Program-made: the position numbers and the translations under genes
Shown here: one piece after another, positions 1-38,065 of the stretch
How positions within the stretch are numbered: the first letter of the stretch is position 1
Layout of the letters: each line of letters starts with the position of its first letter
The notes under the pieces: model-generated
The model's input: the letters and a program-made list of their open reading frames with translations, nothing else
Told to the model about the DNA's origin: nothing
Databases searched by the model: none
Virus record (IMG/VR): IMGVR_UViG_3300020182_000008
Coordinates: 40,628-104,627 of that record
Strand: one strand, 5' to 3'
DNA length: 64,000 nt
Source: a virus

Positions 1-6
1 CATATT

Positions 7-438
7 ATGATTTATTGGCTTACAGGCCAGCCCGGTGCTGGTAAAACCGTTTTAGCAAAAATGTTACATAGTAACAGACTTTTAGATTTCCATATCGATG
101 GGGACGATTTAAGAGAATTAACTAATAACAAAAACTATGGTATAGAAGGTAGAGTACAAAATGTAGCTACAGCTCAAAAAATAGCTCATTATCTCCACAA
201 TCAAGGAAGAAATGTAGTTGTATCATTAGTTTCACCTTATATAGACCAAAGAGAAGAATTTAAACAAATGCTTGGAGATAAACTAGTAGAGATTTACGTT
301 CATACAAGCGAGGAAAGAGGTAGAGAACAATACCATGTGAAAGGGTATCAACCACCGTTAAATAATTTTATAGACGTTGATACTACACATGATGAACCTG
401 AAGAATCATATAGAAAAATAATATCAAATGGCAGATAA
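7..438 (+). CDS. cysC: Adenylylsulfate (APS) kinase
   Basis: P-loop GQPGAGKT, DGDDLR, VSLVSPY...RE and EIYV motifs typical of APS kinase. Confidence 0.9.
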   Translation: MIYWLTGQPGAGKTVLAKMLHSNRLLDFHIDGDDLRELTNNKNYGIEGRVQNVATAQKIAHYLHNQGRNVVVSLVSPYIDQREEFKQMLGDKLVEIYVHTSEERGREQYHVKGYQPPLNNFIDVDTTHDEPEESYRKIISNGR

Positions 439-784
439 GTATAGTTTATTTATAGGACGTTGGCAACCATGGCATGATGGTCATAAGTGGTTAATCGATC
501 AACGTTTAAAAGAAGGTAAAAAAGTTTGTATAGCAGTTAGAGATGTAGAACCAAGCAAGGATCAACCTTGGACAGCGGATGAAATTATACAAAACATAAA
601 AGAACACCTTTACTTTGAGGTAACAGAAGATAAAGTTATTATCATCAAAATCCCAGATATCGAATCTGTAAATTACGGACGAGGAGTAGGATATGAGATT
701 ATAGAACACGTTCCACCTGAAGATATAAAACAGGTATCTGCTACAAAGATTAGAGAACAAATGAGACAAGATGGTAAATTATAA
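428..784 (+). CDS. Minimal HIGH-superfamily nucleotidyltransferase (cytidylyltransferase/NadM-like; possible mini ATP sulfurylase)
   Basis: FIGRWQPWHDGH (HxGH), YGRGVG and C-terminal VSATKIR; overlaps the cysC stop. Confidence 0.8.
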   Translation: MADKYSLFIGRWQPWHDGHKWLIDQRLKEGKKVCIAVRDVEPSKDQPWTADEIIQNIKEHLYFEVTEDKVIIIKIPDIESVNYGRGVGYEIIEHVPPEDIKQVSATKIREQMRQDGKL

Positions 785-1286
785 AGTAATAGATAATTTT
801 TTACGAGATGATATATTTCAAGAATTAAAATATACTTTATTTGGAAATAGAATTTCTTGGAGTTTTAAAAATTATCTAGCTTATCCTGGAGATAATCTAG
901 GTGGAGTAAGTTTTGCTCAATATCTTTATGATCAAAATAAAATTACTCAACCTCAATATTTTTCAATTGTAGAACCTTTAATACAAAGGGCACAAATTAA
1001 CAATTTATATAGAGCTTTAGTTAATTTAGTTCCAAAACAACCAAATAATATCCCTTCAGGAATACATACGGATCATAGTTTCCCTCATAAAGTTTTATTA
1101 TATTATGTTAATACAAATAATGGATATACTATTTTAGACCCAGAAGGAGAAAATATTAAAATACAATGTATAAAAAATAGAGCATTAATATTTAATGGAC
1201 AAATCCCTCACCAAGGAGTATTACAATCAGATACTCCTGTTAGATTAAATGTTAACTTAACTTTTGAAAAACATGGTAAGTTATAA
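771..1286 (+). CDS. 2OG-Fe(II) oxygenase
   Basis: HTD motif, LLYYVNTNNGYT, NRALIF, distal H (PHQG) and R (VRLNVN). Confidence 0.8.
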   Translation: MVNYKVIDNFLRDDIFQELKYTLFGNRISWSFKNYLAYPGDNLGGVSFAQYLYDQNKITQPQYFSIVEPLIQRAQINNLYRALVNLVPKQPNNIPSGIHTDHSFPHKVLLYYVNTNNGYTILDPEGENIKIQCIKNRALIFNGQIPHQGVLQSDTPVRLNVNLTFEKHGKL

Positions 1287-1479
1287 AAGACATATTGCTA
1301 AAACGGTTAGCTGGAGAATTATAGGTACTTTAGATACTATGTTATTATCATCTATTATTACAGATAGTTGGACAATTGGATTGACTATTGGTGGAATAGA
1401 AGTAATAACAAAAACAGTTTTATATTTTTTACATGAGAGGGCTTGGTATAAATTTAGTAAATTTGGTTTAGATAAATGA
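1273..1479 (+). CDS. DUF2061 family small membrane protein
   Basis: RHIAKTVSWRIIGTLDT...YFLHERAW signature; ATG at 1273 preferred over TTG at 1264. Confidence 0.85.
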   Translation: MVSYKRHIAKTVSWRIIGTLDTMLLSSIITDSWTIGLTIGGIEVITKTVLYFLHERAWYKFSKFGLDK

Positions 1480-2030
1480 GAATACTAATTATCGCTTTAC
1501 CTAGAACGGGCTCTTCTAATCTTTTAAAAGGAATTGCTGAAGGAAATTCTCTTAATGAATCTGAGGTTTATTATGAACCCTTTCATTTAAGTAAAAAAAA
1601 ACAAGATTTAATTTATACTAAAAATACTTTAGTAAAAACCCTAATTGAACAAACTACAAATGAATTTTTATTACAATATAAAGAAAAATTTGATAAAGTA
1701 ATATTGTTAAGTAGAAAAAATCTTTTTAAAGCCACTGAAAGTTTAGCTTATTCTTTCCAATCAGAGGATTTTCATAAACCTTATAAATTTTCTTCTAAAG
1801 GTATAGATAAAAAATGGATAAAATATTCTAAGGATTATATTAAAAAAGCTTATATCCAATTATTGAACTTTAGCTCTTTAACTAAAATTCCAATAACCTA
1901 CTATGAAGATTTATACTCAGGAAACAAAGAATTTGTAAAAAACTTTTTAAAAGTATATAATATACAAGTCCAAAATTTTGATGTTATGTATGAGTGTTTA
2001 AACCCCAAAAACAAATATAGAAAAAATTAA
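1476..2030 (+). CDS. Sulfotransferase-like protein (Stf0/NodH-like)
   Basis: PSB-loop-like LPRTGSS, YEPF, VILLSR, TYYEDL; paralog of 2850-3461. Confidence 0.6.
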   Translation: MRILIIALPRTGSSNLLKGIAEGNSLNESEVYYEPFHLSKKKQDLIYTKNTLVKTLIEQTTNEFLLQYKEKFDKVILLSRKNLFKATESLAYSFQSEDFHKPYKFSSKGIDKKWIKYSKDYIKKAYIQLLNFSSLTKIPITYYEDLYSGNKEFVKNFLKVYNIQVQNFDVMYECLNPKNKYRKN

Positions 2031-2031
2031 T

Positions 2032-2850
2032 ATGAAGCATTTAATATTAGGCTCTAGTGGGCAAATTGGAGGGCATCTAGTAAAATATTTAAAAGATAAA
2101 GGAGAAACAGTTTATGAATTTGATATTATTCGTGATCCATATGAAGACTTAAGAATAGAAGATAATTTATTATTAGAAAAATATATAACTAAGTGTGATA
2201 TAGTTCATTTTTTAGCATTTGATGTAGGAGGAGCCAAATACTTAGAAAAACATCAAGACACCTCCCAGTTCATTTTAAATAATATGGGTATAATGTACAA
2301 TACTTTTAAGGTTATTTGGCAACATAATAAGCCCGTTATATTTGCTTCTTCACAAATGGCAGAAATGGGGTATTCAACATATGGAGTACTAAAGTCTTTA
2401 GGAGAAAAAGTAACTAGGGGTATAAATGGGTTAGTAGTTAAATTTTGGAATGTTTATGGATATGAAACCGATCCTGAAAAATCGCATGTTATAACTGATT
2501 TTATTAAAATGGCTAAACATGAAGGTGTTATAAAAATGAGAACTGATGGAAATGAATCAAGACAATTTTTATATGCGGATGATGCTTGTGAAGCTTTATT
2601 ACACCTTTCAAAAAGCTACTTTAAATTACCTAAAGATAAAAATTACTGTATAACTAGTTTTGAATGGACTACTATAAATGAAATAGCTGATTTTTTAGAT
2701 GTTGTATCTAGTTGTGAAGTAATTAGGGGAACTAATAAAGATAATACTCAACAAAATGCTATGAATGAACCTGATTCTTTTATTAAAAAATATTGGCAAC
2801 CTAAAATAAATTTAAAAGAAGGTATAATGAAATTATACGAAATGTACTAA
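2032..2850 (+). CDS. NAD-dependent epimerase/dehydratase
   Basis: GSSGQIG Rossmann motif, FASS, YGVLK (YxxxK), NVYG, RQFLYADD. Confidence 0.9.
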   Translation: MKHLILGSSGQIGGHLVKYLKDKGETVYEFDIIRDPYEDLRIEDNLLLEKYITKCDIVHFLAFDVGGAKYLEKHQDTSQFILNNMGIMYNTFKVIWQHNKPVIFASSQMAEMGYSTYGVLKSLGEKVTRGINGLVVKFWNVYGYETDPEKSHVITDFIKMAKHEGVIKMRTDGNESRQFLYADDACEALLHLSKSYFKLPKDKNYCITSFEWTTINEIADFLDVVSSCEVIRGTNKDNTQQNAMNEPDSFIKKYWQPKINLKEGIMKLYEMY

Positions 2851-3461
2851 TGAAAATATTAATTTTAAGTAGTGGTAGAGCTGGATCTACATCTTTATAT
2901 AAAGGTTTAAAAAATAGCATAAATGCTTCTAAAGGATATTTTGAAGTATTTGCCCCCTCGTATCCTACCTATATACCTGATAGTGGTTCTTTAAAAAAAC
3001 ATATAAAAAAACTTAATAAAACCCATTCTAATAGAGTTGTAATAGAAAAAAATTTAGTCTTCCAACCCACCCCTTTATTCCCAGACAATTCTATTAAATT
3101 TTATTGTGAGTATCTAAATAACTTTAATAAGGTAATTTTACTAGTAAGAGAAGATGTTAATGAAATAGGTAAAAGTTTTGCTTATGCTCGATTAAATGAA
3201 ACATGGCATAAAAAATATACTTTAAATAACAAATTACCTCTAGACTTAGTTAATGACCAAATAAATTTGGCTAAACAATATAATAATATTATATTCCAAA
3301 TAGCAGAACAAACTAAAATACCTATAACTTATTATAAAAACTTATTTTCAGGTAATCAAAATTATATTAATGATTTTTTAAAAGTATATGATATCAAGGT
3401 TGATAATATAGATATTTTGTATAAAGCTTTAAATCCTAGTAACCGATATAGACAATTATGA
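2850..3461 (+). CDS. Sulfotransferase-like protein (paralog of 1476-2030)
   Basis: SGRAGSTSL loop, FEVF, VILLVR, IPITYY; C-terminus similar to 1476-2030. Confidence 0.6.
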   Translation: MKILILSSGRAGSTSLYKGLKNSINASKGYFEVFAPSYPTYIPDSGSLKKHIKKLNKTHSNRVVIEKNLVFQPTPLFPDNSIKFYCEYLNNFNKVILLVREDVNEIGKSFAYARLNETWHKKYTLNNKLPLDLVNDQINLAKQYNNIIFQIAEQTKIPITYYKNLFSGNQNYINDFLKVYDIKVDNIDILYKALNPSNRYRQL

Positions 3462-4147
3462 AACAAGGTATTGTAATACAAGGACCAACTGAATATTATA
3501 AAGAATTAGCTGATTATTATTCTAAATTTGAAAATGTAGTTTGGGCTACATGGAATGACGAATCAATAACTCGTTTAGATTATATAAGAGATAAAGGTAT
3601 AGAGGTTATATTATTAGAAAAACCCATAATACCTGGTTATATGAATGTTAACATGCAGTTAGCATCTTCATATGCTGGGGTAAATCGTTTGTTTGAATTA
3701 GGAATAGATGAAGCATTAAAAGTAAGAAGTGATACTATAGTAACTAATTTAGATAAACTGTTGCCTCGTTTACAAGGTAAAAAATTAGCATTTATGGCTA
3801 CTTGTAAAGTAGGAGTTAGAAAAGATATAGCTTATGATTTAGTTTATTATCACGATAGCCATGACTACCCAGCTGATAACGTTGTTTATGGTAAAATAGA
3901 TGATTTACAAGATATGTTCAATTTCCAAATTGAAGATATGCTACCCATACCACCTGAAGCACTTATTACTTGGAATTATATGATAACCCAAGGTATAACT
4001 TTTCATTTAAGTTATGAGAATATGGTTCATGAGGGTATTAGTTTCTTTTTACAAGAATGTTTAGATGAAAACGTTGAGGTAAATTGGTTGAAACGTGGAG
4101 TTAATTTAGTAGATTGGTATAAAGATAAAACAGTATATGACTGGTAA
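3458..4147 (+). CDS. WavE-like LPS/glycan synthesis protein
   Basis: N-terminal IVIQGP, NVNMQ, ALKVRSD, D-x-VVYG; glycan cluster context. Confidence 0.5.
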   Translation: MKQGIVIQGPTEYYKELADYYSKFENVVWATWNDESITRLDYIRDKGIEVILLEKPIIPGYMNVNMQLASSYAGVNRLFELGIDEALKVRSDTIVTNLDKLLPRLQGKKLAFMATCKVGVRKDIAYDLVYYHDSHDYPADNVVYGKIDDLQDMFNFQIEDMLPIPPEALITWNYMITQGITFHLSYENMVHEGISFFLQECLDENVEVNWLKRGVNLVDWYKDKTVYDW

Positions 4148-4850
4148 AATCAAAGTTGCTTTATGTCTATCAGGAGAACCTCGAAATGATATTTATGCTT
4201 TTCCTTACATATATAAACATTTTATATCTAATCCCTTATTAGAAACTGATGTATATATACATTCTTGGAAGGATTTTGAATCTTTAGATTTATATAAACC
4301 TAAAAAATGTTTAATTGAGTATGATGGGGAAGAAATAATTGACAAGTATATATCAAAACTTCCTAACCTAGATAATGTAAGTCTCCCGGATAAACTTCCT
4401 TTAGTTAGTATTCCTATGTACTATTCTATATATAAATGTTTTAATTTAATTAAAGATCCCTATGACATTTATATAAGAATAAGATTTGATTTTTACCCCC
4501 AATTATCTTTAAATTATACTCCTATTATTAAAGATATATTAAATAAAGAGTATGATATTTTTATTCCTAAGGGAGAAATAGAAAATAAATACTGGAGTAG
4601 TATAGGTTTAGAAAAAGGGTATAATGATAGATTTGCCATATGTAATTATAAAAGTTTTAAAACTTATTCTAGTACTTTTTTAACTATACCTGATGTAATT
4701 AAACAACATAATTATCTCTCAGTTCATCATTTATTATATCATTCATTAAATTTAAAAAACTTAAAAATAAAATATCACCCTTTTTATAGTCAGATAATTA
4801 GAAAGGGAAATTTAAAAATAGATAACTATGGTTCAACTCATTATATTTGA
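4137..4850 (+). CDS. Putative glycosyltransferase-like protein
   Basis: VALCLSGEPR, DVYIHSW, YDIYIRIRFD, NDRFAI motifs typical of viral glycan-cluster proteins. Confidence 0.5.
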   Translation: MTGKIKVALCLSGEPRNDIYAFPYIYKHFISNPLLETDVYIHSWKDFESLDLYKPKKCLIEYDGEEIIDKYISKLPNLDNVSLPDKLPLVSIPMYYSIYKCFNLIKDPYDIYIRIRFDFYPQLSLNYTPIIKDILNKEYDIFIPKGEIENKYWSSIGLEKGYNDRFAICNYKSFKTYSSTFLTIPDVIKQHNYLSVHHLLYHSLNLKNLKIKYHPFYSQIIRKGNLKIDNYGSTHYI

Positions 4851-6186
4851 TTTAGATGGAGTTTTAGTTGAAGCTAAAAACATCCATTATAAGGCCCTTA
4901 ATCAGGCCTTAGGTGACTATGCTATTAGTTGGAATGAACATCTATCAACTTATGATGGGTTAAAAACATCTCAAAAGCTAGATATGTTAACTACAGAAAA
5001 AGGTTTACCTGTAGAAGATCATAAGCGTATTTGGAATGATAAACAAAAATTTACATTAGAGGCACTATCTAATTTAGAAATTGATCCTAATTTATTAAGT
5101 ACTATATCTCACTTATCAAGTGAAGGATATAAAATAGCTTGCTGTTCTAACTCAATTCGTAAAACTGTATTAACAGTACTAGCTAAATTGGGGCTAATCG
5201 AGTTTATGGATTTAATTATATCAAATGAAGATGTAACAAATTCAAAACCCCATCCAGAAATGTACTGGCAAGCTATATCTAAAATGGGATGTTTACCTGA
5301 AGAAACACTTATAGTAGAAGATTCTCCATATGGTTTACTTGCAGCAGCAAGAAGTAAGTCGTATATTCTACGTGTTAAAAATCCACAAGAAGTAACTTAT
5401 AAAAACATTACAAATAAAATAAACGAAATACAAATGGGAAATAAACAAACTATACCAGCATGGCGAGATGAAAATTTAAATGTAATTATCCCAATGGCTG
5501 GAGCAGGTTCTAGATTTAAGGCAGCGGGATATACATTTCCAAAACCTATTATTGATGTAATGGGCAAACCTATGATTCAATTAGTAGTAGAGAGTTTAAA
5601 TGTTAAAGCTAATTTTATATATATTGTTCAAAAAGAACATCGTGAAAAGTATAATTTAGATGCTTTACTAGGGCTAATTACTCCCAATTGTAAAATAGTT
5701 GAGGTAAATGGTTTAACTGAAGGAGCTGCTTGTACTTTGTTACTAGCTAAAGAGCATATTAATAATGGAAATCCTATTTTGATATCAAATTCGGATCAAT
5801 ATATTGAATGGGATTCAAATGAATTTTTCTATAAAATGAATGAATCAGATGCTGATGGGGGTATTGTTACTTTTAAAGCAACCCATCCAAAATGGTCATT
5901 TGCCAAATTAGATAAATTAAATAATATTACTGAGGTAGCAGAAAAAAAACCTATATCAGATAATGCTACTGCTGGTTTTTACTATTGGAAAAAAGGATCT
6001 GATTTTGTAGATTATGCTGAACAAATGATTGAAAAAAATATTAGAGTAAATAATGAATTTTATACTTGTCCTGTTTATAATGAAGCAATTCAAGATAAAA
6101 AAATTATTAAAAACTTTAAAATAGAAAAAATGTGGGGGCTTGGCACTCCAGAAGATCTCAGTTATTATATAGAGCACCATAAATGA
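4828..6186 (+). CDS. HAD phosphatase fused to sugar-phosphate nucleotidyltransferase
   Basis: N-terminal FDLDGVL, KPHP, EDS; C-terminal IPMAGAGSRF...PKP, NSDQ, EK, WGLGTPEDL. Confidence 0.9.
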   Translation: MVQLIIFDLDGVLVEAKNIHYKALNQALGDYAISWNEHLSTYDGLKTSQKLDMLTTEKGLPVEDHKRIWNDKQKFTLEALSNLEIDPNLLSTISHLSSEGYKIACCSNSIRKTVLTVLAKLGLIEFMDLIISNEDVTNSKPHPEMYWQAISKMGCLPEETLIVEDSPYGLLAAARSKSYILRVKNPQEVTYKNITNKINEIQMGNKQTIPAWRDENLNVIIPMAGAGSRFKAAGYTFPKPIIDVMGKPMIQLVVESLNVKANFIYIVQKEHREKYNLDALLGLITPNCKIVEVNGLTEGAACTLLLAKEHINNGNPILISNSDQYIEWDSNEFFYKMNESDADGGIVTFKATHPKWSFAKLDKLNNITEVAEKKPISDNATAGFYYWKKGSDFVDYAEQMIEKNIRVNNEFYTCPVYNEAIQDKKIIKNFKIEKMWGLGTPEDLSYYIEHHK

Positions 6187-6623
6187 TTCTAATATCACAT
6201 AGAGGTAATTTAAAAGGAAAGCACCCCGATGAAAACCACCCAGATTATATTTGGAAGGCAATTCAAGCTGGGTATGATGTTGAGATTGATGTTTGGTTTG
6301 TAGATGGTAAATTTAAACTAGGACATGATGAACCCTTATATGATTTTTCATTTGATTTATTTGATAGTTATTATAATAGACTTTGGATACATTGTAAAAA
6401 TATAGAAGCAATGGTTGCTTTAAATGAATTTCCAAATGAAAACTTAATAAATTATTTTTGGCATCAAGAAGATGATATTACATTGACATCAAAAGGATAT
6501 ATTTGGGCATACCCTGGCAAACAACCCATTAAAAATAGTATAGCAGTAATGCCCGAATTAAATAAAGATGATTTAACCAAAGCTATAGGTATTTGTAGCG
6601 ATTATATAGAAGATTATAAATGA
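6183..6623 (+). CDS. Glycerophosphodiester phosphodiesterase-like protein
   Basis: ISHRGN, EN, VEIDVW, GHD, HCKN, ICSDY. Confidence 0.75.
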   Translation: MILISHRGNLKGKHPDENHPDYIWKAIQAGYDVEIDVWFVDGKFKLGHDEPLYDFSFDLFDSYYNRLWIHCKNIEAMVALNEFPNENLINYFWHQEDDITLTSKGYIWAYPGKQPIKNSIAVMPELNKDDLTKAIGICSDYIEDYK

Positions 6624-7495
6624 AATTAAGTGCAGTAGTAGTAACACGAAATGATAATTACGGAGGTAATCTAAATGATAGAGCAACTTATTGCCTGAAC
6701 TCACTAATAGATACATTTGACGAAGTAATACTTGTTGATTGGAACTCACCTAATAATAAACCCCAACTTTGGGATATTCAAGATAGAATAGATTTTAAAG
6801 GCAATCTAAAACATATAGTAATCACCCCAGAGGTAGCCTCTATATTAACTAATAACGATCCACACGCTCAGGTATGTTGTGAAACACTAGCTCGTAATAT
6901 TGGTATTAGACGAGCTACAGGTGATTATATTGTATCAACTAATATTGATGTAATTGCTCCACGCAGAGATCAGTTAGAACAAACGATTAAAAACGAGCTA
7001 AACGATAATACATTTTATACTATATCTCGTAGATATACTGATTGGGAACAAATTGAGAAATTCCATGGTGGTGAACGTAAATTTAATGAGTGGAGAAAAC
7101 TACGTGATCACCTAATAGAAAATAGTGAAGAACGAACTACAGGTGAATCTGTAGTTGAAGGTGATAACTATAGTATTATAAATTGTTGTGGTGATTTTCA
7201 AATTGCACATAGGGATATTTGGAATGAGATAAGAGGATTTGAAGAAGAACTTATTTATGTTTTATATAGTGATACAAACGTTCAAAAGAAAGCTATTAAA
7301 CATGGCTTTGAACTTAAAGCAATTTACTCCCCAGCTCTATTCCATATATTTCATGGTAAAGGTGGAGGTGGATTTTTAGACGGCATTAACAGAAAAGTAA
7401 ACGATATGTACCGAGCAGTTACTGCTCAGGAAAAAACCGAAAATGCCGACACATGGGGATTTGAACCCATTGAAATGGAGTATGAATTACTCTAA
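6620..7495 (+). CDS. Glycosyltransferase (GT2-like)
   Basis: VTRNDNY, EVILVDW, ARNIGIRRATGDYIVSTNID, GFEE, HIFH. Confidence 0.8.
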   Translation: MKLSAVVVTRNDNYGGNLNDRATYCLNSLIDTFDEVILVDWNSPNNKPQLWDIQDRIDFKGNLKHIVITPEVASILTNNDPHAQVCCETLARNIGIRRATGDYIVSTNIDVIAPRRDQLEQTIKNELNDNTFYTISRRYTDWEQIEKFHGGERKFNEWRKLRDHLIENSEERTTGESVVEGDNYSIINCCGDFQIAHRDIWNEIRGFEEELIYVLYSDTNVQKKAIKHGFELKAIYSPALFHIFHGKGGGGFLDGINRKVNDMYRAVTAQEKTENADTWGFEPIEMEYELL

Positions 7496-8304: not shown

Positions 8305-8659
8305 TACTTCGATTAAGAGAAAAAACAAAAAATCCTACGATCAAAAACGAGATTTGTTTATCAACGTGATAAATCAATTCGAGGCTGCTATTACTAAATC
8401 TTATTTATTAGAAAAGGACCATAAGATTGATATGTCTAAGTATGAGGAAGGTTTTTATCAGATAATAGATTCACTTGTATTACTGGCGTTTGGTAAAGAA
8501 ATATACGAATTATTATCATTCTACTTCTATGAACGTTACAACCCAGATGGGAGTGAAAACGGGTTAATTATAGAAGAAACAGGTGAAGAGGTGTTTGTAA
8601 AGGATGCTATGGAATTATGGGATTTAATTGTTAGAGTTCAACCTGAAATATTCAAATAA
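8246..8659 (+). CDS. Hypothetical protein
   Basis: 137-aa ORF; overlaps the previous ORF by 59 nt. Confidence 0.7.
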   Translation: MSKDPLHSLKQSLDQLLQADTSIKRKNKKSYDQKRDLFINVINQFEAAITKSYLLEKDHKIDMSKYEEGFYQIIDSLVLLAFGKEIYELLSFYFYERYNPDGSENGLIIEETGEEVFVKDAMELWDLIVRVQPEIFK

Positions 8660-9282
8660 TGGGTAGAAAGCAAATAGTAATAACTAAAGAACAGCTATTA
8701 AACGCTATGAAAATGACTAAGTCAAACATGGCTTGTGCTCGTTATTTAGGTATTAGCTATATGCATTATAGTCGTTATGCTAAAAGTTATATTGACGAGG
8801 AAACAGGTAAAACACTATTTGACTTACATAAAAATCAGGCCGGTAAAGGTATTAGAAAGTTTTTAGGTGGTAAAGACCCTGATTTAAAAGCTATAATGGA
8901 TGGTGAGTTATATATTAAATCATATAACTTAAATCGTTATAAAGATAGATTAATACAAGAAGGTTATATAGAAGAATGTTGTAGTAGCTGTGGTTTTAAC
9001 GAACAACGAGTTCAAGATTACAAAACTCCACTCTTAATACATTTTAAAGACAAAAATAAAGAAAATTGGCGTATAGAAAACATAGAACTACTATGTTATA
9101 ACTGTTATTTCCTATACATTGGTGATGTTTTCAATGAAAAGCAAATAAAAAACATTGAAGAAGACGCACCAGTTAAAAAAGATGATACTGTAAATTGGGA
9201 AATGGATGAGAATATGCTTGAACATTTCAAAGACATTGGTTTAGTAGAAGACGACGAAGAAGATTATGTAGCTCGTCTGTGA
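8659..9282 (+). CDS. HTH plus HNH-type zinc-binding endonuclease-like protein
   Basis: N-terminal HTH-like ACARYLGIS; CSSCG...HFKD...ENIELLCYNC. Confidence 0.7.
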   Translation: MGRKQIVITKEQLLNAMKMTKSNMACARYLGISYMHYSRYAKSYIDEETGKTLFDLHKNQAGKGIRKFLGGKDPDLKAIMDGELYIKSYNLNRYKDRLIQEGYIEECCSSCGFNEQRVQDYKTPLLIHFKDKNKENWRIENIELLCYNCYFLYIGDVFNEKQIKNIEEDAPVKKDDTVNWEMDENMLEHFKDIGLVEDDEEDYVARL

Positions 9283-9321: not shown

Positions 9322-9798
9322 ATGTTAAAATTAACTGTTACATTAGTGTTAATGTTGTTATCGTCCTTTGCGTTTGGGCAGGAGACTATACAAATCGGAG
9401 AGGTTAACAACAAAATTCAGCTAGGTCCTTTTGCGGGTAGTAGGGACCTAGCTTTTGGTGTTCAATCTATTCTTGAAGAAGCAATACAAGATAAAGGATA
9501 CAACTTATCCTATAATGCTGAAACTCAAATCCAAGTAGATTTATTATATTTTGATGTACAGAAAACCAATGTACAAATAGCTATTTACAGTAAAAATGTA
9601 GATGAATATCAAATTATTGCCCGTGCCTCATTACTTAAAAATGGTAAAAAGAAAAAACAGGTAGTAGCTAAAGGTACTGCTAAAGAAATATCCACATCAA
9701 CTCTCATTATAGATGAAGGTGGTCAGTTCTCTCAAACAAATGTTTCGACAGCTTTAAAGAAGGTTTGTATTGAATTAATTGATAAACTTAAACTATAA
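9322..9798 (+). CDS. Exported protein, CsgG/TolB-N-like fold (putative)
   Basis: Sec signal (AFG/Q); C-terminal FSQTNVSTALKK resembles FNQSSIGTATKK of 13655-14371. Confidence 0.5.
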   Translation: MLKLTVTLVLMLLSSFAFGQETIQIGEVNNKIQLGPFAGSRDLAFGVQSILEEAIQDKGYNLSYNAETQIQVDLLYFDVQKTNVQIAIYSKNVDEYQIIARASLLKNGKKKKQVVAKGTAKEISTSTLIIDEGGQFSQTNVSTALKKVCIELIDKLKL

Positions 9799-11544
9799 AT
9801 GAAAAAATTATTATTATTACTATTATTACCTTTACTATCATTTGGACAAAATGTTCAGCTTGGATTAGAAATGTTTCAAAATGATACTAATGAAGTAGTA
9901 GATGCAAACAATCCTATTGAAGAAGGATTACTACTAGGAGTAGGCCTACATATGTTTGCTGTAGGTTCTGATGACTTTACTTTACTAGCAGACAGTAGAT
10001 ACCTATTTGTAGATATCCAGTATAATAGTCAAATCTTATCACTTATTGATGATGCATATGATTTTCCATCTTTAGATCTTACAACAACTGGAGGTACTAT
10101 AGAAGAAAGGTATACATTTTCAAATACAAGTATTAGCCAAAGAACAAATGACCTAAAATTAGGTTATAATAGATGGCAAGCAGGAGATGATGTTTATTCT
10201 GAATATAATGCTAAATGGAGTGTAGTAAGAATAGCAATACAGCTAAGTGATGCAGGTTTTGATGCTTTTATGGATGAATCTACTATACGTACTGAGGAAC
10301 CTTTATTTGTTCAAGCATTCCAAGTTAAAACAGGTACAGTTTCTATTACAGAACAAGATATGTTTATAAATTTTGCAACAATAGATAATGTAGATGATAC
10401 CCAAGTAACTTCACTATATACTACTGCTGCATCATATCCACATCCTGTTATTGAATCTGTATCTTACAATGCTAAACTTCATTTTGATCTACCAGAGGCA
10501 ATAGATCCTACAAACTTTCAAGTAACAGTATATGAAGAAGGTGCAATAGATAGTCGTTTACCTGTAACCTTAGACGCAGCTGGAGATGCACTAATATCAG
10601 ATGTTGAGTTAGGTAAAACATATTATGCATCTAATTTAGATCCAATAGATAGAACATACCTACCAGACGTTCATACGGTAACAGATGCTTATAGATCGTT
10701 TAAGTATTTAAATGACGTAGGAATAAATGGTACAGATGTAACCTATAACAACTTCGGATTATTCTCAGCGGATGCTAACTTAAATGGTGAATTTACTTCA
10801 TATGATGTTTACGGTTTATTTGCCTATGTTTTAGGAATAGAAGTACAGGAAAATGGTGGTCAATCTGATGCACCCGGTGATACATTTTGTTTACCTTTCT
10901 TAGATGACAACGGAGTATGGTATCACGGATGTACAGCTACAGTATTATATGAAAACTACACTATAGAGAAATTAGGAGCTGAACTTGATATAAAAAACAC
11001 AGGTGAAAGTACAGGACAATATTGGAATAGTAGTTTTACTCCAACAGAAGATAATCTTAATTTTGATTTTGCTTTCTGGCATCATGTTGATTTAGACCAA
11101 TCACATAGTTCACAGTTCCCCGCTACATTAACTGCTAAAGCATCAAAGGCAGGTTTAAGCTTAAGTAATAAAGCAGTAGGTACTACCACTTTAGATATGG
11201 TCAGCAAAATAGAAAATGGTTTAGTTAAGGTTGAATTAACACATAGTGGAGAAGATATAGTAGGCCTACAAGCTAGAGTAAAATATGATACTTCTAAGTT
11301 AGTACTTAAAAATATAATATATGACACAGGCAATACTTTAACAAACTTTGGTAAACCATTTGATGGAGAGTTACTATTTGGAACTTTATCAAAAGACGGT
11401 TTAGATAATGTTAAAAAAGGTAAAGCATTTACAATAGAATTTACCCCTATAGGAATAGTAAACAACACTACAGGTTTATTCTATTTCGAAAACACAGATG
11501 CTGTTAAGCAAAACGGCGATAAAATGAACTTAAAAATACAATAA
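9799..11544 (+). CDS. Exported protein with dockerin-like EF-hand and C-terminal cohesin-like domain
   Basis: Signal peptide; ADANLNGEFTSYD loop; IVGLQARVKYDTSKL...LLFG cohesin-like pattern. Confidence 0.6.
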   Translation: MKKLLLLLLLPLLSFGQNVQLGLEMFQNDTNEVVDANNPIEEGLLLGVGLHMFAVGSDDFTLLADSRYLFVDIQYNSQILSLIDDAYDFPSLDLTTTGGTIEERYTFSNTSISQRTNDLKLGYNRWQAGDDVYSEYNAKWSVVRIAIQLSDAGFDAFMDESTIRTEEPLFVQAFQVKTGTVSITEQDMFINFATIDNVDDTQVTSLYTTAASYPHPVIESVSYNAKLHFDLPEAIDPTNFQVTVYEEGAIDSRLPVTLDAAGDALISDVELGKTYYASNLDPIDRTYLPDVHTVTDAYRSFKYLNDVGINGTDVTYNNFGLFSADANLNGEFTSYDVYGLFAYVLGIEVQENGGQSDAPGDTFCLPFLDDNGVWYHGCTATVLYENYTIEKLGAELDIKNTGESTGQYWNSSFTPTEDNLNFDFAFWHHVDLDQSHSSQFPATLTAKASKAGLSLSNKAVGTTTLDMVSKIENGLVKVELTHSGEDIVGLQARVKYDTSKLVLKNIIYDTGNTLTNFGKPFDGELLFGTLSKDGLDNVKKGKAFTIEFTPIGIVNNTTGLFYFENTDAVKQNGDKMNLKIQ

Positions 11545-11545
11545 A

Positions 11546-11926
11546 ATGAGCTTAAAATTCCAAAAAATATATTACACAATTCTATTTCTACTATTTCTAG
11601 CCTGCACTCCAGACTACGAATTTGAAATGGTGCCCTATGATTTTGTTCCTAAAGCTTTAGTAATTAAAAAAGATGTAGGTATAAAGTTAGATAATAATTT
11701 TGCTACAACATCAGCAAAAATGAATGTAAAACTTAATAGTACAGGAAACTACTATATAAAAGTATTAGATATAACTGGAAAAGTAGTCGCTAAAGAATTA
11801 GTAAATGGAAAAATTGGCGATAACATTTTTACAGTATACACGTCAACTCTACCTAAAAGTTCCTACAGGATAGAATTGTACTTAGAAGATGATAAAGTAG
11901 GAACTACATCAATAAATTTACTATGA
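11546..11926 (+). CDS. Lipoprotein with T9SS C-terminal-domain-like Ig fold
   Basis: Lipobox FLAC; YYIKVLDITGKVV...TSTLPKSSYRIEL. Confidence 0.6.
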   Translation: MSLKFQKIYYTILFLLFLACTPDYEFEMVPYDFVPKALVIKKDVGIKLDNNFATTSAKMNVKLNSTGNYYIKVLDITGKVVAKELVNGKIGDNIFTVYTSTLPKSSYRIELYLEDDKVGTTSINLL

Positions 11927-21534: not shown

Positions 21535-22419
21535 ATGGAAGAAAAATATTTAATTTGGCACGTCCAAGGTGGGATAGGTAAGAATGTTGCCTCTACATCT
21601 TTAATTCCAGATCTAAAAAAACAATACCCAGGAAGGAAACTTATAATGGTAGTTTCCTGGCCGGAAGTATTTTTAAATCATCCCTATATAGATAAAGTTT
21701 ATTCATTAGGTAACCATCCTTATTTTTACGAAAAATATATTGAAAATAAAGATGTTATTATTTTTAAACATGAACCTTATGATCAAACAGGTCATATAAC
21801 TAAGAAAAAACACCTAATTGAAAATTGGTGTGATCTATTAGGAATTGAACATAAAGAACAAATTCCTTATTTTTCTATTAACTATGCTCAAAATAAATTA
21901 CAATTACAATGGGTAAGAGAAAAACCTGTTTTATTATTACAAACTACAGGAGGTCCCTTTTTATCTTCTGAAGGCCCCCCTAAACCTTATGTATGGACTA
22001 GAGATTTACCAATAGAAATAGCCCAAACTATAGTAAACAAATATAGCCAAGATTACCATATTATACAAGTTACAAAAGATGGTGGGTATGGGTTACAGGG
22101 TGTAGAAAGATTAGATAAGCAGTTAAGTAATATAGAACTATTTTCTTTAGTAGCAGCCTCTCAAAAACGTATATTAATTGATTCTTCACTACAACATGCT
22201 GCTGCAGCATTTAGAATGCCTTCAACAGTATTTTGGGTAGGAACTTCACCTAAAGTATTTGGTTATAAGATGCATACTAATATAACAGCTAAATTACCTG
22301 AAAAAGCCAATCAACTTATAAATTCATATATGTTTGATTTTAATTTTGATAATAATACTCATGAATGTCCCTATATGTCAATAAATGAAATGTTTGATAT
22401 AGAAAATTTGGATATTTAG
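21535..22419 (+). CDS. GT9-like (heptosyltransferase-like) glycosyltransferase
   Basis: GGIGKNV, FLNHPYID, IDSSLQHAAAAFRMPSTVFW. Confidence 0.75.
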   Translation: MEEKYLIWHVQGGIGKNVASTSLIPDLKKQYPGRKLIMVVSWPEVFLNHPYIDKVYSLGNHPYFYEKYIENKDVIIFKHEPYDQTGHITKKKHLIENWCDLLGIEHKEQIPYFSINYAQNKLQLQWVREKPVLLLQTTGGPFLSSEGPPKPYVWTRDLPIEIAQTIVNKYSQDYHIIQVTKDGGYGLQGVERLDKQLSNIELFSLVAASQKRILIDSSLQHAAAAFRMPSTVFWVGTSPKVFGYKMHTNITAKLPEKANQLINSYMFDFNFDNNTHECPYMSINEMFDIENLDI

Positions 22420-26045: not shown

Positions 26046-26174
26046 ATGAGCAGTAAGTATTTCGGGAATAAACACGATAATAAAACGCAAGGGCAAAAGG
26101 GTAAACCAATGGCCCCAAACAAAAATAAAAGCGCTAAACAAACGCAAATAAAAAAATCGGGTAGGGGAAAATAA
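26046..26174 (+). CDS. Basic microprotein (42 aa)
   Basis: MSSKYFGNKHDNKTQGQKGKPMAPNKNKSAKQTQIKKSGRGK. Confidence 0.6.
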   Translation: MSSKYFGNKHDNKTQGQKGKPMAPNKNKSAKQTQIKKSGRGK

Positions 26175-34969: not shown

Positions 34970-37900
34970 TGCCTAACGGATTAAAAAAAGCTGTTAATAA
35001 TACCGATAATTCTTCTACTAAGTTTTTAGAAGGGATTAAACGTCAAACTTTAAACATTATCTATGGTAAAGGCAAAACAGCCTCTACATTTGTTAACTTT
35101 TCAGATTCAGCTGAAAGACAACAATTTATAAAGGGGATAAAAAATATAAGAGAAAACCCCGCTCTAGTCCCTATAACTGAAACCATTAAAGTATTTAACA
35201 CTTACGATATATGTAATCCACTTCAATTTATAGCTACCCAAGCTTTCCCTCCTGGAAGTGATGTAGCTAATGGTATTAATAAGTTTGAAGGACAGGTAGG
35301 TAAATTATTAAATATTTTTAAACAGTTTCAATTTGTTCAAGGAAATCAAACAGCAGAGGGGGTTTACGGTTATCCTGATCCTTTAAAAGAAGAAAACCCC
35401 TTAATTACTTTTAATCCTGGAAAAATTACTTTAGTGGTTCCTAGAGAACAACCTGGAGGAGAGGTAAATGCACCTGTCCATAAAGGATCTCAAGTAGTTC
35501 TTAAACAAACTGAAGATCCAAAAATAGGATCTAAAATGATAGGAAATATAGATAAATCTTTCCCAGTTACAGGTGAAGAATTAGGTTTGTTTTCTGATGA
35601 AATTATTGGAGTTGGATATATAATAGAAGTAACAAGTATTTCCCCATCAGATCCTCCTTATGCTACAGATAAAAATGGAAATACTTTAAAAGATGAAGAT
35701 GGTGATCCTATTTTAAGAGGATTTGAATTGTTTACTATGGATTTTGAAGCTGATCCTTCTACAACTGATGTACGAGAATTAGCTACTGAATTAAATGGTT
35801 TACTTACTACTATACGAGAATTAGGTATTGAAGGAATAAAAAACGATTTAGCTCAACTCCCAGATACTATACCTTTTGTAGCTAAATTAAAAGCTCCATT
35901 TGAAAAATTTGTTAAAATATTAGAAGGAGACCCAGAAAATAATCAAGAAGGTGTGTTAGCACCTATAAATGACGCAGCTACAGATGTAGGAGGATTGCAA
36001 GCAACTTTAGAAGGAGGTCTTAATGCTCAACAAGTATTAGAAAGAGTAAGAATTGTAAGAGATATTCAATCTAAAATTTTACCTTTTACAAATGTAACTT
36101 CTTTTGTAGAAGAAAAATTTAAAAAACAAATTGGAGATGTAAATAAACTTTTAAAAGATTTTATTCCATTTGATGCACCTTTAGGACCTAATGGAAAACC
36201 AAAATTTAGTTTAAGATTAGTTGTTCAAACATTAGTAGATTTTGCTACATATATAGAAGGTGCTATCACGTTTATTTTAGCTTTACTTCGTACTGTAAAC
36301 ATGATGATTAAAATTATTACTATAGTACTTAAAGTATTAAAAGTAGTAATTAAAGTAATCAAAGCTGTTATTAAAGCATTACCTGCTGCATTTATACCTG
36401 TTGGGGCAATACAACTAGTAACAGAAAAGTTAGCATATGTTGATGATGCTATTCAAACTGCTATTGATTTCTTAGATAAATTGTCTAAAAATATAGATCT
36501 TGTAATTAGTAGTTTAACTTTAATTAAAAAGTTCCTAACCGTCTTTATTAAAGAATTAGCTAAATTTGCTGAAAAACTAGATAGTTGTGAAACATTCCCA
36601 AATGAAGATAGAGATCTTATAGAAAAAGCTTTAAGAGGTTCATATACAGCTCTTAACAACCTAATTTCAGTAACCCCTAAAGGTAAGGGTCCGGGGGGTC
36701 AATCGGGGGCTGTAACTAATATAATTAATTCTACAGATGATGATGTAACAGTTATAACATTAGAAGATGGTTCATTAATGGTATTACCTGGTTCAGTTTA
36801 TGGATTTGATAAAGATGGTAATATAATATTTAATGGTAAATTAGTTTCTTTAGCAACCGGAGTTGTATTTGATGATGCTAGGGGTCAAGATTTAAGAGAT
36901 TTGTTTGCTGAAGGTAATCAATTAAGATATTATACATACAATAAATTTACAGCTGCTAACCAAGGTTTATTAGAGGCAGCTGAAAAAGCATTTTTTGATT
37001 TACAAAAACAAGTAGATCCTGAAGATCGATTTGGTAATTTTGTTGAAACATACTTAGGTTATGTTTTAAAAATTCAAGAAGAAAGACCTATAGATAAAAA
37101 CGATAATAAATTAACTAGAAGAAGAGGTGTAGCTTTAGATTCAAATGAACGTATTGTAGCTGGAACCGAATTAACCTTCTCTACTAATTTATCTACTATA
37201 ATTCAGGAATTAAAATTTAAATTAAAACGTGACGTTGAGGCCGGTATTATAGGTGTTAATACCTCAGATAAAGATCCAAACGAAATAGATGATGATTCCG
37301 CAGTTGAAATAGCTAAAACAACTGGTGCTAACCCAATAGCTATATCTAATATTAAAGCTGAACAAGCTAATAGAGCAGCTGCTTTACCCGAATTAGAAGA
37401 TAATCCTGATCCAACACCAATAGAAGGAAGAGTTGGAAATTCTTCTTATAGTTCTTTAGAAGACAATACTGCTGCTTCTTCAAAACCTAACCCTTCAGTC
37501 AAACAAAGGCCCCTTGATACACAAAAATTAGTTAGAGAACCTTTAAATGAATTTATTCAATCAAATCCTTCCTTAGCTAAAATATCAAATACATATTCTG
37601 TATTAAGTGGAGCATCTTCAAATCAATTATCCCAAATTTTAAGCCAACCTGGAGTAGAAGAGTTATCTGAAGATGAACTTATAGCAAATTTAAAAGAATC
37701 TATTTTAAGTGAAATGGATCCTAACCCTGATAAAATAAAAGAGGTTCAAAACAAAACAGATCAGTGGTATAATGGGTTAAAAGAAAAAGCTAAAGCCGAT
37801 TACGATAGAATGGTAGCTAGAACACCAGGTATAGCTAGAAAAATATTACCTTCATTTGAGAAATACTTTAATAAAATAGAAAAACAAGAACTTCCAAAAT

Positions 37901-38046
37901 GGATTAAATTACTTTTAAGACAAAAGTATACCGAAACAGAAGTAGAATATGGTATTTCTAATGACGATATTAGAGAAGAATACCGAATTAAAATAGATGG
38001 TACTAAAGTTAAAGTAAAACGTAAACGAGGTAAAGAAAAAGAGTAA
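34969..38046 (+). CDS. Large putative virion protein with central amphipathic helices
   Basis: 1025 aa in the baseplate operon; IKIITIVLKVLKVVIKVIKAVIKALP. Confidence 0.65.
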   Translation: MPNGLKKAVNNTDNSSTKFLEGIKRQTLNIIYGKGKTASTFVNFSDSAERQQFIKGIKNIRENPALVPITETIKVFNTYDICNPLQFIATQAFPPGSDVANGINKFEGQVGKLLNIFKQFQFVQGNQTAEGVYGYPDPLKEENPLITFNPGKITLVVPREQPGGEVNAPVHKGSQVVLKQTEDPKIGSKMIGNIDKSFPVTGEELGLFSDEIIGVGYIIEVTSISPSDPPYATDKNGNTLKDEDGDPILRGFELFTMDFEADPSTTDVRELATELNGLLTTIRELGIEGIKNDLAQLPDTIPFVAKLKAPFEKFVKILEGDPENNQEGVLAPINDAATDVGGLQATLEGGLNAQQVLERVRIVRDIQSKILPFTNVTSFVEEKFKKQIGDVNKLLKDFIPFDAPLGPNGKPKFSLRLVVQTLVDFATYIEGAITFILALLRTVNMMIKIITIVLKVLKVVIKVIKAVIKALPAAFIPVGAIQLVTEKLAYVDDAIQTAIDFLDKLSKNIDLVISSLTLIKKFLTVFIKELAKFAEKLDSCETFPNEDRDLIEKALRGSYTALNNLISVTPKGKGPGGQSGAVTNIINSTDDDVTVITLEDGSLMVLPGSVYGFDKDGNIIFNGKLVSLATGVVFDDARGQDLRDLFAEGNQLRYYTYNKFTAANQGLLEAAEKAFFDLQKQVDPEDRFGNFVETYLGYVLKIQEERPIDKNDNKLTRRRGVALDSNERIVAGTELTFSTNLSTIIQELKFKLKRDVEAGIIGVNTSDKDPNEIDDDSAVEIAKTTGANPIAISNIKAEQANRAAALPELEDNPDPTPIEGRVGNSSYSSLEDNTAASSKPNPSVKQRPLDTQKLVREPLNEFIQSNPSLAKISNTYSVLSGASSNQLSQILSQPGVEELSEDELIANLKESILSEMDPNPDKIKEVQNKTDQWYNGLKEKAKADYDRMVARTPGIARKILPSFEKYFNKIEKQELPKWIKLLLRQKYTETEVEYGISNDDIREEYRIKIDGTKVKVKRKRGKEKE

Positions 38047-38048
38047 TA

Positions 38049-38062
38049 TATAAATATTTATA
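38049..38062 (+). promoter_or_regulatory. Late promoter motif within the 14-bp palindrome TATAAATATTTATA
   Basis: Directly before the ATG at 38066. Confidence 0.6.
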
Positions 38063-38065
38063 ATC

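Follow-up and report, generated by a model that had tools for sequence, protein, structure and literature searches.

The 64,000-nucleotide window analysed here, part of an uncultivated virus genome from IMG/VR, opens with 12 complete plus-strand genes (positions 7-7495) that overlap or abut one another, with junctions that overlap by up to 23 bases or leave a gap of 1 base at most. The original prediction counted thirteen genes in this stretch; the thirteenth may be the last codons (1-10, plus strand) of a 304-aa ORF at G000:39723-40637 in genome coordinates, which matches no Pfam or NCBIfam family. The end of this ORF indicates that the cluster runs on upstream, beyond the window. The tight coupling described originally was confirmed, but the operon is not self-contained. 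The tightly packed gene train begins approximately 14.5 kb before the window does, at about G000:26150, and the stretch studied is the last (3') third of a sugar island of approximately 22 kb and 30 genes (G000:26150-48122). The upstream train encodes GT4, GT2 and GT10-like (fucosyltransferase) proteins, 2OG oxygenases, GDP-mannose 4,6-dehydratase (8e-119), an SDR reductase and further SDRs, a DegT aminotransferase, methyltransferases, and TPP E1 alpha/beta-like proteins. The island ends with a GT2 gene at 6620-7495, followed by three small ORFs without matches and by a lysis/envelope module that begins at 9322. Multi-TM proteins are absent from the island, and none of its proteins has more than one hydrophobic segment. 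A profile search of the whole genome for Bac_transf gave no match.

The phage origin of this DNA is confirmed by the 166-kb T4-like genome with its Gp23 capsid gene. Among cultured phages, one of Flavobacterium has the closest major capsid protein (57% identity), so a host among Bacteroidota/Flavobacteria is plausible for this marine T4-like phage.

The complete genes begin with a putative sulfate-activation module. The first gene (7-438, plus strand) encodes a 143-aa APS-kinase-like protein with a short lid, which matches Pfam APS_kinase (PF01583; 6.6e-18; 65.6 bits, cut-off 21.1) over model positions 4-146 of 152. The best NCBIfam models are those of adenylyl-sulfate kinase, with 54-67 bits against cut-offs of 127-244, none of which is reached. 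The protein contains the P-loop GQPGAGKT and the motifs IDGDDLR and LVSPY, whereas its lid is cut down to ERGREQYH in comparison with RDxKGLY...FTGI of canonical CysC. The kinase gene is translationally coupled to the genes of a nucleotidyltransferase (NT; 428-784, plus strand) and of a small predicted membrane protein, DUF2061 (1264-1479, plus strand; PF09834, 4.2e-22; 78.8 bits, cut-off 23.1). All three proteins had been named in the original prediction, and profile matches uphold each assignment, that of NT being NMNAT-like. The short-lid form of the kinase also adjoins the NT gene in cellular genomes, kinases 41-59% identical to that of the phage adjoin it in many cellular loci, and DUF2061 is fused to NT in four relatives (P0204, P0213, P0273, P0275). 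Within the module, a gene that the first reading left unnamed (771-1286, plus strand) encodes a 2OG-Fe(II)-oxygenase-like protein. It matches phrog_274 (3.2e-39), whose label 'endonuclease V' is probably a mislabel; the protein carries an H-x-D...H motif (IHTDHS...PHQG) and matches the FlmC-family 2OG-Fe(II) oxygenase model of NCBIfam (E 0.0024), while the Pfam search gave no match. A search of the phage genome found no cysH (PAPS_reduct), cysD or sat genes.

The NT is a 118-aa, NMNAT-derived protein of the HIGH superfamily, with the HxxH motif, the HIGH nucleotidyltransferase fold and a cytidylyltransferase-like/NMNAT-like profile match. It scores 43.8 and 37.6 bits against the NMNAT models TIGR01527 and NF002243 (cut-offs 127 and 181, unmet). 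The alignment with NMNATs is restricted to residues 6-80 and an ISxTxxR tail, and the C-terminal, NMN-binding part of approximately 50 residues is missing. The catalytic domain of ATP sulfurylase (Sat, PF01747) has no match anywhere in the phage genome, including NT. Among the 120 longer NT relatives listed, from 151 found, most have an APS_kinase domain before or after the NT part, and several are fused to DUF2061; in many relatives the partner of NT is a fully canonical CysC domain with all APS-binding motifs kept. Of 80 cellular loci, at least 50 have the APS kinase gene next to NT. Recurrent neighbors include SDRs (29 loci), UDP-glucose dehydrogenase (20), Sulfotransfer_5 (19), DegT (16), Wzi (11) and Wza (10); other neighbors are sulfotransferases, MetK/AhcY and, in Nitrospiraceae, CysH. 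Modules of NT and APS kinase are thus located in capsule/EPS and sulfotransferase loci of many bacteria.

The genomic distribution of NT is complementary to that of known sulfurylases. An APS kinase was found in all 30 NT-bearing genomes, Sat and CysD in two each, and a canonical sulfurylase is present beside NT in four of the 30. In a sample of 201 Marinimicrobia genomes, Sat or CysD occurs in none of the seven genomes that have both NT and APS kinase versus 108 of 124 that have APS kinase without NT; the seven constitute one clade, and a Fisher p-value on these counts overstates independence. In viruses, NT and DUF2061 genes lie within 8 kb of sulfotransferase genes of the type described below in 14-17 of 57 contigs, and a fusion of the kinase with NT is also found in siphophages of Xylella, Xanthomonas and Stenotrophomonas. 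The neighborhood of the fusion in Salvo, the only one read among these siphophages, has no annotated sulfotransferase. Because relatives of NT are mostly fused or adjacent to APS kinases, and are found almost exclusively where an APS kinase is present and Sat and CysD are absent, NT is probably a miniature ATP sulfurylase, a very small one that may be hitherto undescribed.

The two mini sulfotransferases, ST_a (184 aa; 1476-2030, plus strand) and ST_b (203 aa; 2850-3461, plus strand), are sulfotransferase-fold proteins with PAPS-binding motifs and are 34% identical to each other. The original prediction of two sulfotransferases hinged on a PAPS-binding fold in these ORFs. This fold was found, and motifs, fold and family profile agree, although neither protein has a Pfam, NCBIfam or PHROG match and both miss every curated family threshold; none of the GenBank phage records matches ST_a. 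In ST_a, which scores 3.5e-53 with the family profile, the R-x-G-S-S and R...S motifs are kept. Within the 5'-phosphosulfate loop, 10 close relatives all share R10, G12 and S13, and 71 diverse ones show no change at R10 or G12. In the 3'-phosphate motif, S109 never varies, and the conservation of R100 is 90% or higher. The Walker-A lysine is absent from both proteins. The top PDB match of the family profile is NodH (9vki), with both PAPS motifs aligned; weak matches to Sulfotransfer_3, _4 and _1 were obtained for 22, 12 and 10 of the 71 relatives, respectively (best 4.8e-6). The best matches in a structural search are the sulfotransferases Stf0 (top), CurM/OLS and TPST, which share the alpha/beta sulfotransferase fold, and P-loop kinases follow just 1-2 Z units below them. 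In other viral contigs, mini-ST genes have 2OG oxygenases as their most frequent neighbors (49 of 57 loci); genes without known function are also common there, in contrast to sugar genes, and none of the sugar genes of the window travels with ST in these contigs.

The remaining genes of the stretch are mostly candidates for glycan synthesis. Between the two ST genes, with overlapping reading frames, lies the gene of an SDR nucleotide-sugar epimerase/reductase (2032-2850, plus strand; Pfam Epimerase, 1.3e-21; phrog_540 nucleotide-sugar epimerase, 1.6e-37). A fusion of a HAD_2 hydrolase/mutase-like domain with a sugar-phosphate nucleotidylyltransferase (4828-6186, plus strand; HAD_2, 1.6e-29; NTP_transferase, 2.5e-11) has about 68% DNA identity to genes annotated as HAD hydrolase and glucose-1-phosphate thymidylyltransferase in T4-like cyanophages, and a 48% identical fusion is encoded 7 kb from the kinase and NT genes in a Marinimicrobia genome (L087). 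The 291-aa GT2-family glycosyltransferase (6620-7495, plus strand) matches Glycos_transf_2 (PF00535, 1.3e-5) marginally and over a partial domain (25.7 bits, cut-off 23.3). Profile searches thus bear out the epimerase, the fusion and GT2. Two further assignments are weak. The 229-aa protein (3458-4147, plus strand) is possibly WavE-like. This weak lead comes from a language model: an Atlas feature search gave 0.98 against viral clusters, in one of which 15% of members carry WavE (PF07507), and searches of Pfam (including WavE), NCBIfam and PHROG gave no match. The GDPD-like protein (6183-6623, plus strand) is truncated, with 146 aa compared with about 250 for GDPD. Its N-terminal residues 2-52 alone align by phmmer with glycerophosphodiester phosphodiesterase (PDB 7e0v; E 2.6e-3; HRG...E-D...HDE), whereas the complete TIM-barrel domain is absent and no Pfam match was found at E 0.01; the orthologue in cyanophage DSL-LC03 carries the GDPD annotation. 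The phospho-substitution originally suggested for the glycan depends on this truncated, weakly matching ORF. The 237-aa protein at 4137-4850 (plus strand), also unnamed before, matches phrog_13607 (unknown function) and is DUF7796-like: DUF7796 is found on 17-35% of members of its nearest Atlas clusters. Its structure resembles viral proteins (TM 0.75-0.81), including 508-aa fusions with Sulfotransfer_2, and its structural matches include a 'capsular polysaccharide biosynthesis' cluster. It is probably a glycan-modifying enzyme.

Since a PAPS supply adjoins two sulfotransferases in an island of sugar-nucleotide and glycosyltransferase genes, the best reading of the locus, and in our opinion a rather probable one, is that the phage supplies its own PAPS for the sulfation of a glycan that it also makes. 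The sulfated glycan of the original prediction is retained in this form, with its acceptor deduced from gene context. In this pathway, NT would adenylylate sulfate (ATP + sulfate -> APS + PPi), and the translationally coupled short kinase would phosphorylate APS to PAPS, with the assistance of the DUF2061 membrane protein. The two paralogous cytoplasmic sulfotransferases of approximately 200 aa would then move sulfate from PAPS to hydroxyls of a sugar or oligosaccharide. The acceptor sugar could be made by the neighboring SDR, HAD-nucleotidylyltransferase, GT2 and WavE/DUF7796-like proteins together with the upstream GDP-fucose, GT10, GT4 and amino-sugar enzymes. We infer these catalytic activities, the glycan acceptor and its final location from the gene content. 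The sulfate could end up either on the virion or on host envelope glycans (LPS/capsule) assembled by the host machinery, where it might serve the receptor masking originally suggested; the virion, e.g. its fibres, would fit the soluble nature of all the enzymes and the GT9-domain enzyme encoded among the tail genes. If this is true, the phage makes its own activated sulfate and attaches it to a self-built sugar chain; to our knowledge, no phage product of this kind has yet been demonstrated.

The sulfotransferases might instead act on a non-glycan acceptor, the neighboring sugar genes being a separate pathway. Potential acceptors are phage or host proteins (at tyrosine, or at residues hydroxylated by the many 2OG-Fe(II) oxygenases of the phage), a lipid/acyl intermediate, or a small metabolite. 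Protein tyrosine sulfotransferases are indeed among the structural neighbors of the STs, as are the acyl-ACP sulfotransferases CurM and OLS; a 2OG oxygenase gene sits within the PAPS module, as such genes sit near most mini-STs of other viruses, where the sugar genes of the window are lacking. However, the SDR gene is inserted between the two STs in overlapping frames, the top profile match (NodH) is a carbohydrate sulfotransferase and the top fold match (Stf0) a trehalose sulfotransferase, and cellular modules of NT and APS kinase are found in capsule/EPS loci. We consider a non-glycan acceptor unlikely, though not far-fetched. The product of the kinase and NT could also be NAD or another adenylylated, 3'-phosphorylated nucleotide rather than PAPS, and the STs could be users of other nucleotides or divergent P-loop kinases. 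The nearest characterised relatives of NT are indeed NMN adenylyltransferases, the short kinase stays below NCBIfam cut-offs, P-loop kinases are structurally close to the ST model, and the siphophage fusions include that of Salvo, near which a sulfotransferase annotation is lacking. This possibility is quite doubtful given the loss of the C-terminal part of NMNAT from NT, its many fusions with canonical CysC domains, its CysH, sulfotransferase and MetK/AhcY neighbors, and the combination in the STs of a missing Walker-A lysine with the sulfotransferase R...S motif.

Viromic surveys count cysC and cysH among auxiliary metabolic genes of phages, and NT adjoins CysH in some cellular loci. The kinase could on these grounds boost both assimilatory sulfate reduction and cysteine supply of the host during infection, unrelated to the glycan genes. 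We find such a role highly improbable in a phage genome that lacks PAPS/APS reductase, Sat and CysD, and in which the kinase is coupled translationally to genes running straight into two STs; moreover, the PAPS module accompanies mini-STs in other viral contigs. DNA glycosylation is common in T4-like phages, an example being the glucosylated hmC of T4, and the island could likewise serve to hypermodify the DNA of this phage with sugars and perhaps with sulfate. This is scarcely credible, as no gene of the thymidylate-synthase/dCMP- or dUMP-hydroxymethylase family was found in the genome, and GT2, GT4, GT10, the GDP-fucose pathway and WavE-/DUF7796-like genes typify the synthesis of glycans rather than of DNA.

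The preferred sulfated-glycan pathway resembles several known systems in part. In bifunctional PAPS synthases and in Sat-CysC/CysN-CysC pairs (human PAPSS1, 1x6v; Aquifex, 2gks), the kinase partner has approximately 390 aa versus 118 aa of the phage NT, which is NMNAT-like, unmatched by PF01747 and accompanied by DUF2061, and the lid of the phage kinase is truncated. The phage STs are no more than 14-17% identical to Stf0 (Mycobacterium trehalose 2-sulfotransferase, 1tex) and TPST1/2, from which they also differ in being shorter by 40-90 residues and in belonging to none of the Pfam sulfotransferase families. Some viruses glycosylate their own particles, as in chlorovirus and mimivirus glycans and glycosylated mycobacteriophage virions. 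The likeness lies in genes for soluble cytoplasmic sugar-nucleotide enzymes and glycosyltransferases without lipid-carrier or export genes; we know of no sulfation in these systems. Seroconversion modules of the Gtr type or with O-acetylases contain membrane-embedded flippase/transferase genes, in contrast to this island without multi-TM proteins in a genome without Bac_transf. The marine T4-like cyanophages S-CAM9, S-PRM1, B3 and DSL-LC03 share the genome type and marine setting of this phage, and their sugar-nucleotide clusters contain the HAD hydrolase/NTP-transferase/GDPD-like trio at about 67-73% DNA identity; unlike here, the matching stretches have no annotated sulfotransferase or APS kinase. 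In rhizobial Nod-factor sulfation, NodP/NodQ likewise constitute a dedicated PAPS supply beside a carbohydrate sulfotransferase, NodH, apart from housekeeping sulfate assimilation, and NodH heads the PDB matches of the mini-ST profile. That system is bacterial whereas ours is viral, NodPQ is of the canonical CysDN type, and NodH, a member of a curated family, is approximately 250 aa long. Mesorhizobium nod loci with nodH, nodP and nodQ also contain a DUF2061 gene (bioRxiv 10.1101/2022.04.26.489235).

In the simple reading of the island, a sulfate module made of an APS kinase, a 118-aa nucleotidyltransferase (NT) and a DUF2061 protein would provide the sulfate donor PAPS to two miniature sulfotransferases, ST_a and ST_b. 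The functions of all genes discussed here were assigned from sequence analysis and models. Positions 7–7495 of the window contain 12 plus-strand ORFs, all overlapping or abutting: neighbouring ORFs share up to 23 bases or are at most 1 base apart. The GC content of 27–31% is the same as in the remainder of the window. The APS-kinase-like gene (7–438) matches a near-complete Pfam model (6.6e-18) but falls short of every NCBIfam cut-off, and the lid of its product is shortened. The gene for NT, a HIGH nucleotidyltransferase (428–784) related, among characterised enzymes, only to archaeal/NadM NMN adenylyltransferases, is separated from the DUF2061 gene (1264–1479) by a 2OG-Fe(II)-oxygenase-like ORF (771–1286) left unnamed in the original prediction. 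The paralogous genes of ST_a (1476–2030) and ST_b (2850–3461), 34% identical, flank an SDR sugar epimerase/reductase (2032–2850). The following two ORFs had no profile matches: one (3458–4147) is possibly WavE-like, according to an ESM Atlas lead (WavE in 15% of one neighbouring cluster), and the other (4137–4850) is DUF7796-like, its ESM Atlas neighbours being labelled DUF7796 and 'capsular polysaccharide biosynthesis', with Sulfotransfer_2 fusions among them. The clear HAD_2 and NTP_transferase fusion (4828–6186) is ~67–73% identical in DNA to genes of T4-like cyanophages. For the GDPD-like ORF (6183–6623), similarity to glycerophosphodiesterases is confined to their first ~50 residues, and the ORF lacks the length for a complete barrel; the GT2 gene (6620–7495) narrowly passed the threshold. 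Beyond 7495 there are three small unnamed ORFs, an HNH-like ORF and then the lysis/envelope module; this gene content bears out the downstream limit originally drawn at that position. The 207-aa ORF at 8659–9282, placed after the island and before the lysis module, has a weak HNH_3 match (E 0.002, sub-threshold) and may be the relic of a homing endonuclease at the edge of the island.

Upstream, the overlapping train of plus-strand genes extends past window position 1, and positions 7–7495 are the closing part of a larger island, which begins at about position 26150 of the whole record, directly after the genes of a PD-(D/E)XK nuclease and of the clamp loader, and thus comprises ~22 kb and ~30 genes. 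The upstream train includes, in order, a 304-aa unknown protein, an RmlD-like SDR, split TPP-dependent E1 alpha- and beta-like proteins, a 4,6-dehydratase-like SDR, a SAM methyltransferase, a DegT aminotransferase, a small methyltransferase-like ORF, a GT10-like fucosyltransferase, a GDP-mannose 4,6-dehydratase (8e-119), an SDR reductase, an unknown protein, a GT2, two 2OG oxygenases and two GT4/GT1-like genes. The split TPP pair, located at 37745–38915 of the record (9746–10916 in the examined locus L003) and consisting of an E1 alpha-like (E1_dh 5e-17) and a beta-like protein (Transket_pyr 4e-8), is flanked by the 4,6-dehydratase-like and RmlD-like SDRs, with the DegT and methyltransferase genes nearby. 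Their grouping suggests a deoxy-amino sugar that carries a two-carbon branch or is unusual in some other way. Scans for the T4 late-promoter motif, sigma-70 promoters and terminators found no enrichment and were uninformative on timing or operon ends.

ST_a and ST_b match no family in Pfam, NCBIfam or PHROGs. R10-x-G12-S13 and R100...S109 are invariant across ten close relatives; among 71 diverse members of their family (mini-ST), R10, G12 and S109 are invariant, and E32, P33, K67 and R100 are conserved in at least 90%. Judged from these alignments, the conserved residues are the 5'-phosphosulfate loop and the 3'-phosphate motif of sulfotransferases, and the Walker-A lysine of kinases is missing. 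The AlphaFold model (pLDDT 89, pTM 0.89) has TPST2, TPST1 and Stf0 as its first Foldseek matches. Against PDB sequences, single-sequence and 10-sequence profiles found nothing meaningful; the LPS sulfotransferase NodH was reached by the 71-sequence profile only, as the best match and with both motifs aligned. Among the 71 members, 22 weakly match Sulfotransfer_3, 12 Sulfotransfer_4 and 10 Sulfotransfer_1. The original prediction had called both ORFs sulfotransferases, and a check for a PAPS-binding fold sustained it, with the phosphosulfate loop, the 3'-phosphate motif and fold matches all found. The mini-ST family is unnamed. An exhaustive profile search yielded 805 representatives at 50% identity, all of ~200 aa; the members looked up are carried by phage-size metagenomic contigs, and at least 57 IMG/VR contigs have the family. 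With ST_a as the query, tblastn gave no match in 50,697 GenBank phage records, and the only copies in this genome are ST_a and ST_b.

The step that precedes the kinase would be taken by NT, which we consider a probable producer of APS, and thereby a candidate miniature ATP sulfurylase, from its conservation, fusions and genomic distribution. The domain is strongly conserved (invariant G10, R11, H16, G18, H19, R38, D39, P47, P76, D77, I78, G84, R85, G88, Y89, S104 and R109). Most of the 120 longer relatives listed, out of 151 found, also have an APS_kinase domain; in many of these fusions the CysC domain is fully canonical, in either order, and several include DUF2061. NT was found in 172 species genomes, the carriers being Marinimicrobia, Marinoscillum, Flavobacteriales, Saprospiraceae, Nitrospiraceae, Dadabacteria/'Thermodesulfobacteriota', Omnitrophota and marine group III archaea. 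It is adjoined by an APS kinase in at least 50 of 80 loci, and its recurrent neighbours (SDR epimerases, UDP-glucose dehydrogenase, Sulfotransfer_5, DegT, Wzi and Wza) indicate capsule/EPS loci. In Nitrospiraceae CysH is directly upstream of NT, and in Bacteroidota single-cell genomes MetK/AhcY are downstream. The NT genomes searched have a pathway hole: APS kinase is present in all 30, Sat in two and CysD in two, and seven chromosome-level assemblies are among those with neither Sat nor CysD. APS kinase is encoded by 131 of 201 evenly sampled Marinimicrobia genomes; within these 131, Sat or CysD occurs in 0/7 with NT versus 108/124 without it (Fisher p = 2e-6, the seven forming one streamlined clade and hence not seven independent events). 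On 14–17 of the 57 viral contigs NT and DUF2061 are within 8 kb of mini-ST, and the APS kinase is also seen there unless the contig end cuts it off. The nod loci of Mesorhizobium have a DUF2061 gene alongside nodH, nodP and nodQ.

Counting against NT as an ATP sulfurylase, the Sat profile does not match it, a canonical sulfurylase co-occurs with it in four genomes, and siphophages of Xylella, Xanthomonas and Stenotrophomonas carry a kinase–NT fusion. In Xylella phage Salvo (NC_042345:15167-15913) this fusion is the annotated 'kinase' gp32, 43% identical to NT and located in a group of early genes, with a 'cysteine dioxygenase' and a MazG-like gene close by; Salvo is the only siphophage whose neighbourhood was read, and no sulfotransferase is annotated near its fusion.

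The 166,268-bp virus record is rated complete by CheckV. Its major capsid gene is of the T4 type (Pfam Gp23 1.6e-75), with Flavobacterium phage vB_FspM_immuto as the closest cultured relative (57% identity over the full protein length), followed by a Microcystis phage and then Rhodothermus phage RM378. A baseplate wedge gene lies inside the window, and weak, sub-threshold matches to DUF3244 and the T9SS C-terminal sorting domain Por_Secre_tail at 11546–11926 hint at a Bacteroidota host. The capsid and baseplate wedge genes confirm the predicted phage origin, and the capsid relatives and the T9SS match make a Flavobacteria host plausible. The closest APS kinase, NT and DUF2061 (59–71% identity) are found on a contig of a Flavobacteriaceae MAG (L071). 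We dropped this contig as host evidence, since with 33% GC and nearly all ORFs on the same strand it may be a binned phage.

What the pathway sulfates can be narrowed by gene content. The kinase is not an auxiliary gene of sulfate assimilation, because the phage genome lacks PAPS/APS reductase, Sat and CysD, and DNA glycosylation of the T4 kind was set aside as unsupported, since no thymidylate-synthase-family hydroxymethylase is encoded. The most likely acceptor of ST_a and ST_b is a carbohydrate, given the SDR gene between them and the nucleotide-sugar and glycosyltransferase genes on both sides. The main rival is a non-glycan acceptor, because mini-ST travels with 2OG oxygenases, not sugar genes, in other viral contigs, where these oxygenases are the commonest neighbour (49 of 57 loci); hydroxylation of some substrate by the oxygenase followed by its O-sulfation is conceivable. 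Sulfation would take place in the cytoplasm, since all island enzymes appear soluble and no carrier-lipid or export genes were recognised in the island; no island protein has more than one hydrophobic segment, and the phage genome encodes no Bac_transf phosphoglycosyltransferase. The sulfated product might then either join host envelope pathways or decorate phage proteins. A GT9 (heptosyltransferase-family) domain (5.8e-14) was found at 134079–134519 of the record in a 777-aa ORF, whose product is a candidate for transferring sugars made by the island to proteins.

Sugar islands, cysC and isolated sulfotransferase genes are each already known from phages. A complete donor-plus-transferase route within a glycan island, in a T4-like phage of a Flavobacterium-phage lineage, was not met with in any description, and the literature covered by the searches had nothing relevant on a non-canonical ATP sulfurylase, DUF2061 function or phage sulfated glycans. 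The cassette would work like a PAPS synthase combined with NodH-type sulfation, but in membership tests its proteins qualified neither as Sat or NMNAT nor for a curated sulfotransferase family; with NT, the island embeds a candidate new enzyme class. Earlier listings of phage genes include sulfotransferases, whose function in phages 'remains unclear' (2023 paper, PMC10580990), and the presence of two of them with their own donor-supply genes in a glycan island turns this open question into a concrete, assayable pathway. Should NT be an ATP sulfurylase, it would represent a third, very small class of this central sulfur-cycle enzyme and explain PAPS in many streamlined marine bacteria and archaea that have APS kinase without Sat or CysDN. 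Sulfated algal polysaccharides are broken down chiefly by Flavobacteria. If one of their phages made a sulfated glycan, carried either by its particle or by the infected cell, this would be a new surface chemistry in phage–host recognition. A far-reaching combination, which we regard as very improbable when taken jointly, is self-sufficient sulfation by a third, previously undescribed kind of ATP sulfurylase derived from NMNAT, a sulfated fucose glycan on fibres or capsid, and mimicry of algal glycans. The GDP-fucose pathway, the GT10-like fucosyltransferase and ST_a and ST_b would then build a sulfated fucose-containing coat on the phage's own fibres or capsid; the coat would mimic the sulfated algal polysaccharides foraged by marine Flavobacteria, and glycan-capture proteins of the host would thereby become the first receptor of the phage.

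Other genes have relatives near sulfate modules elsewhere. A 294-aa ORF at 21535–22419 of the window has a 31% identical homologue in L071 (10541–11416), directly after the APS kinase, NT and DUF2061 genes; it looked GT9-like by eye, and this assignment was rejected, as PF01075 gave no match and phmmer against PDB found nothing. In a Marinimicrobia single-cell genome (L087:135-2227), a HAD and NTP-transferase protein is 48% identical to that encoded at 4828–6186, and its gene lies ~7 kb from a cellular pair of APS kinase and NT; the HAD/NTP-transferase part of the island and the sulfate module may share one cellular source.
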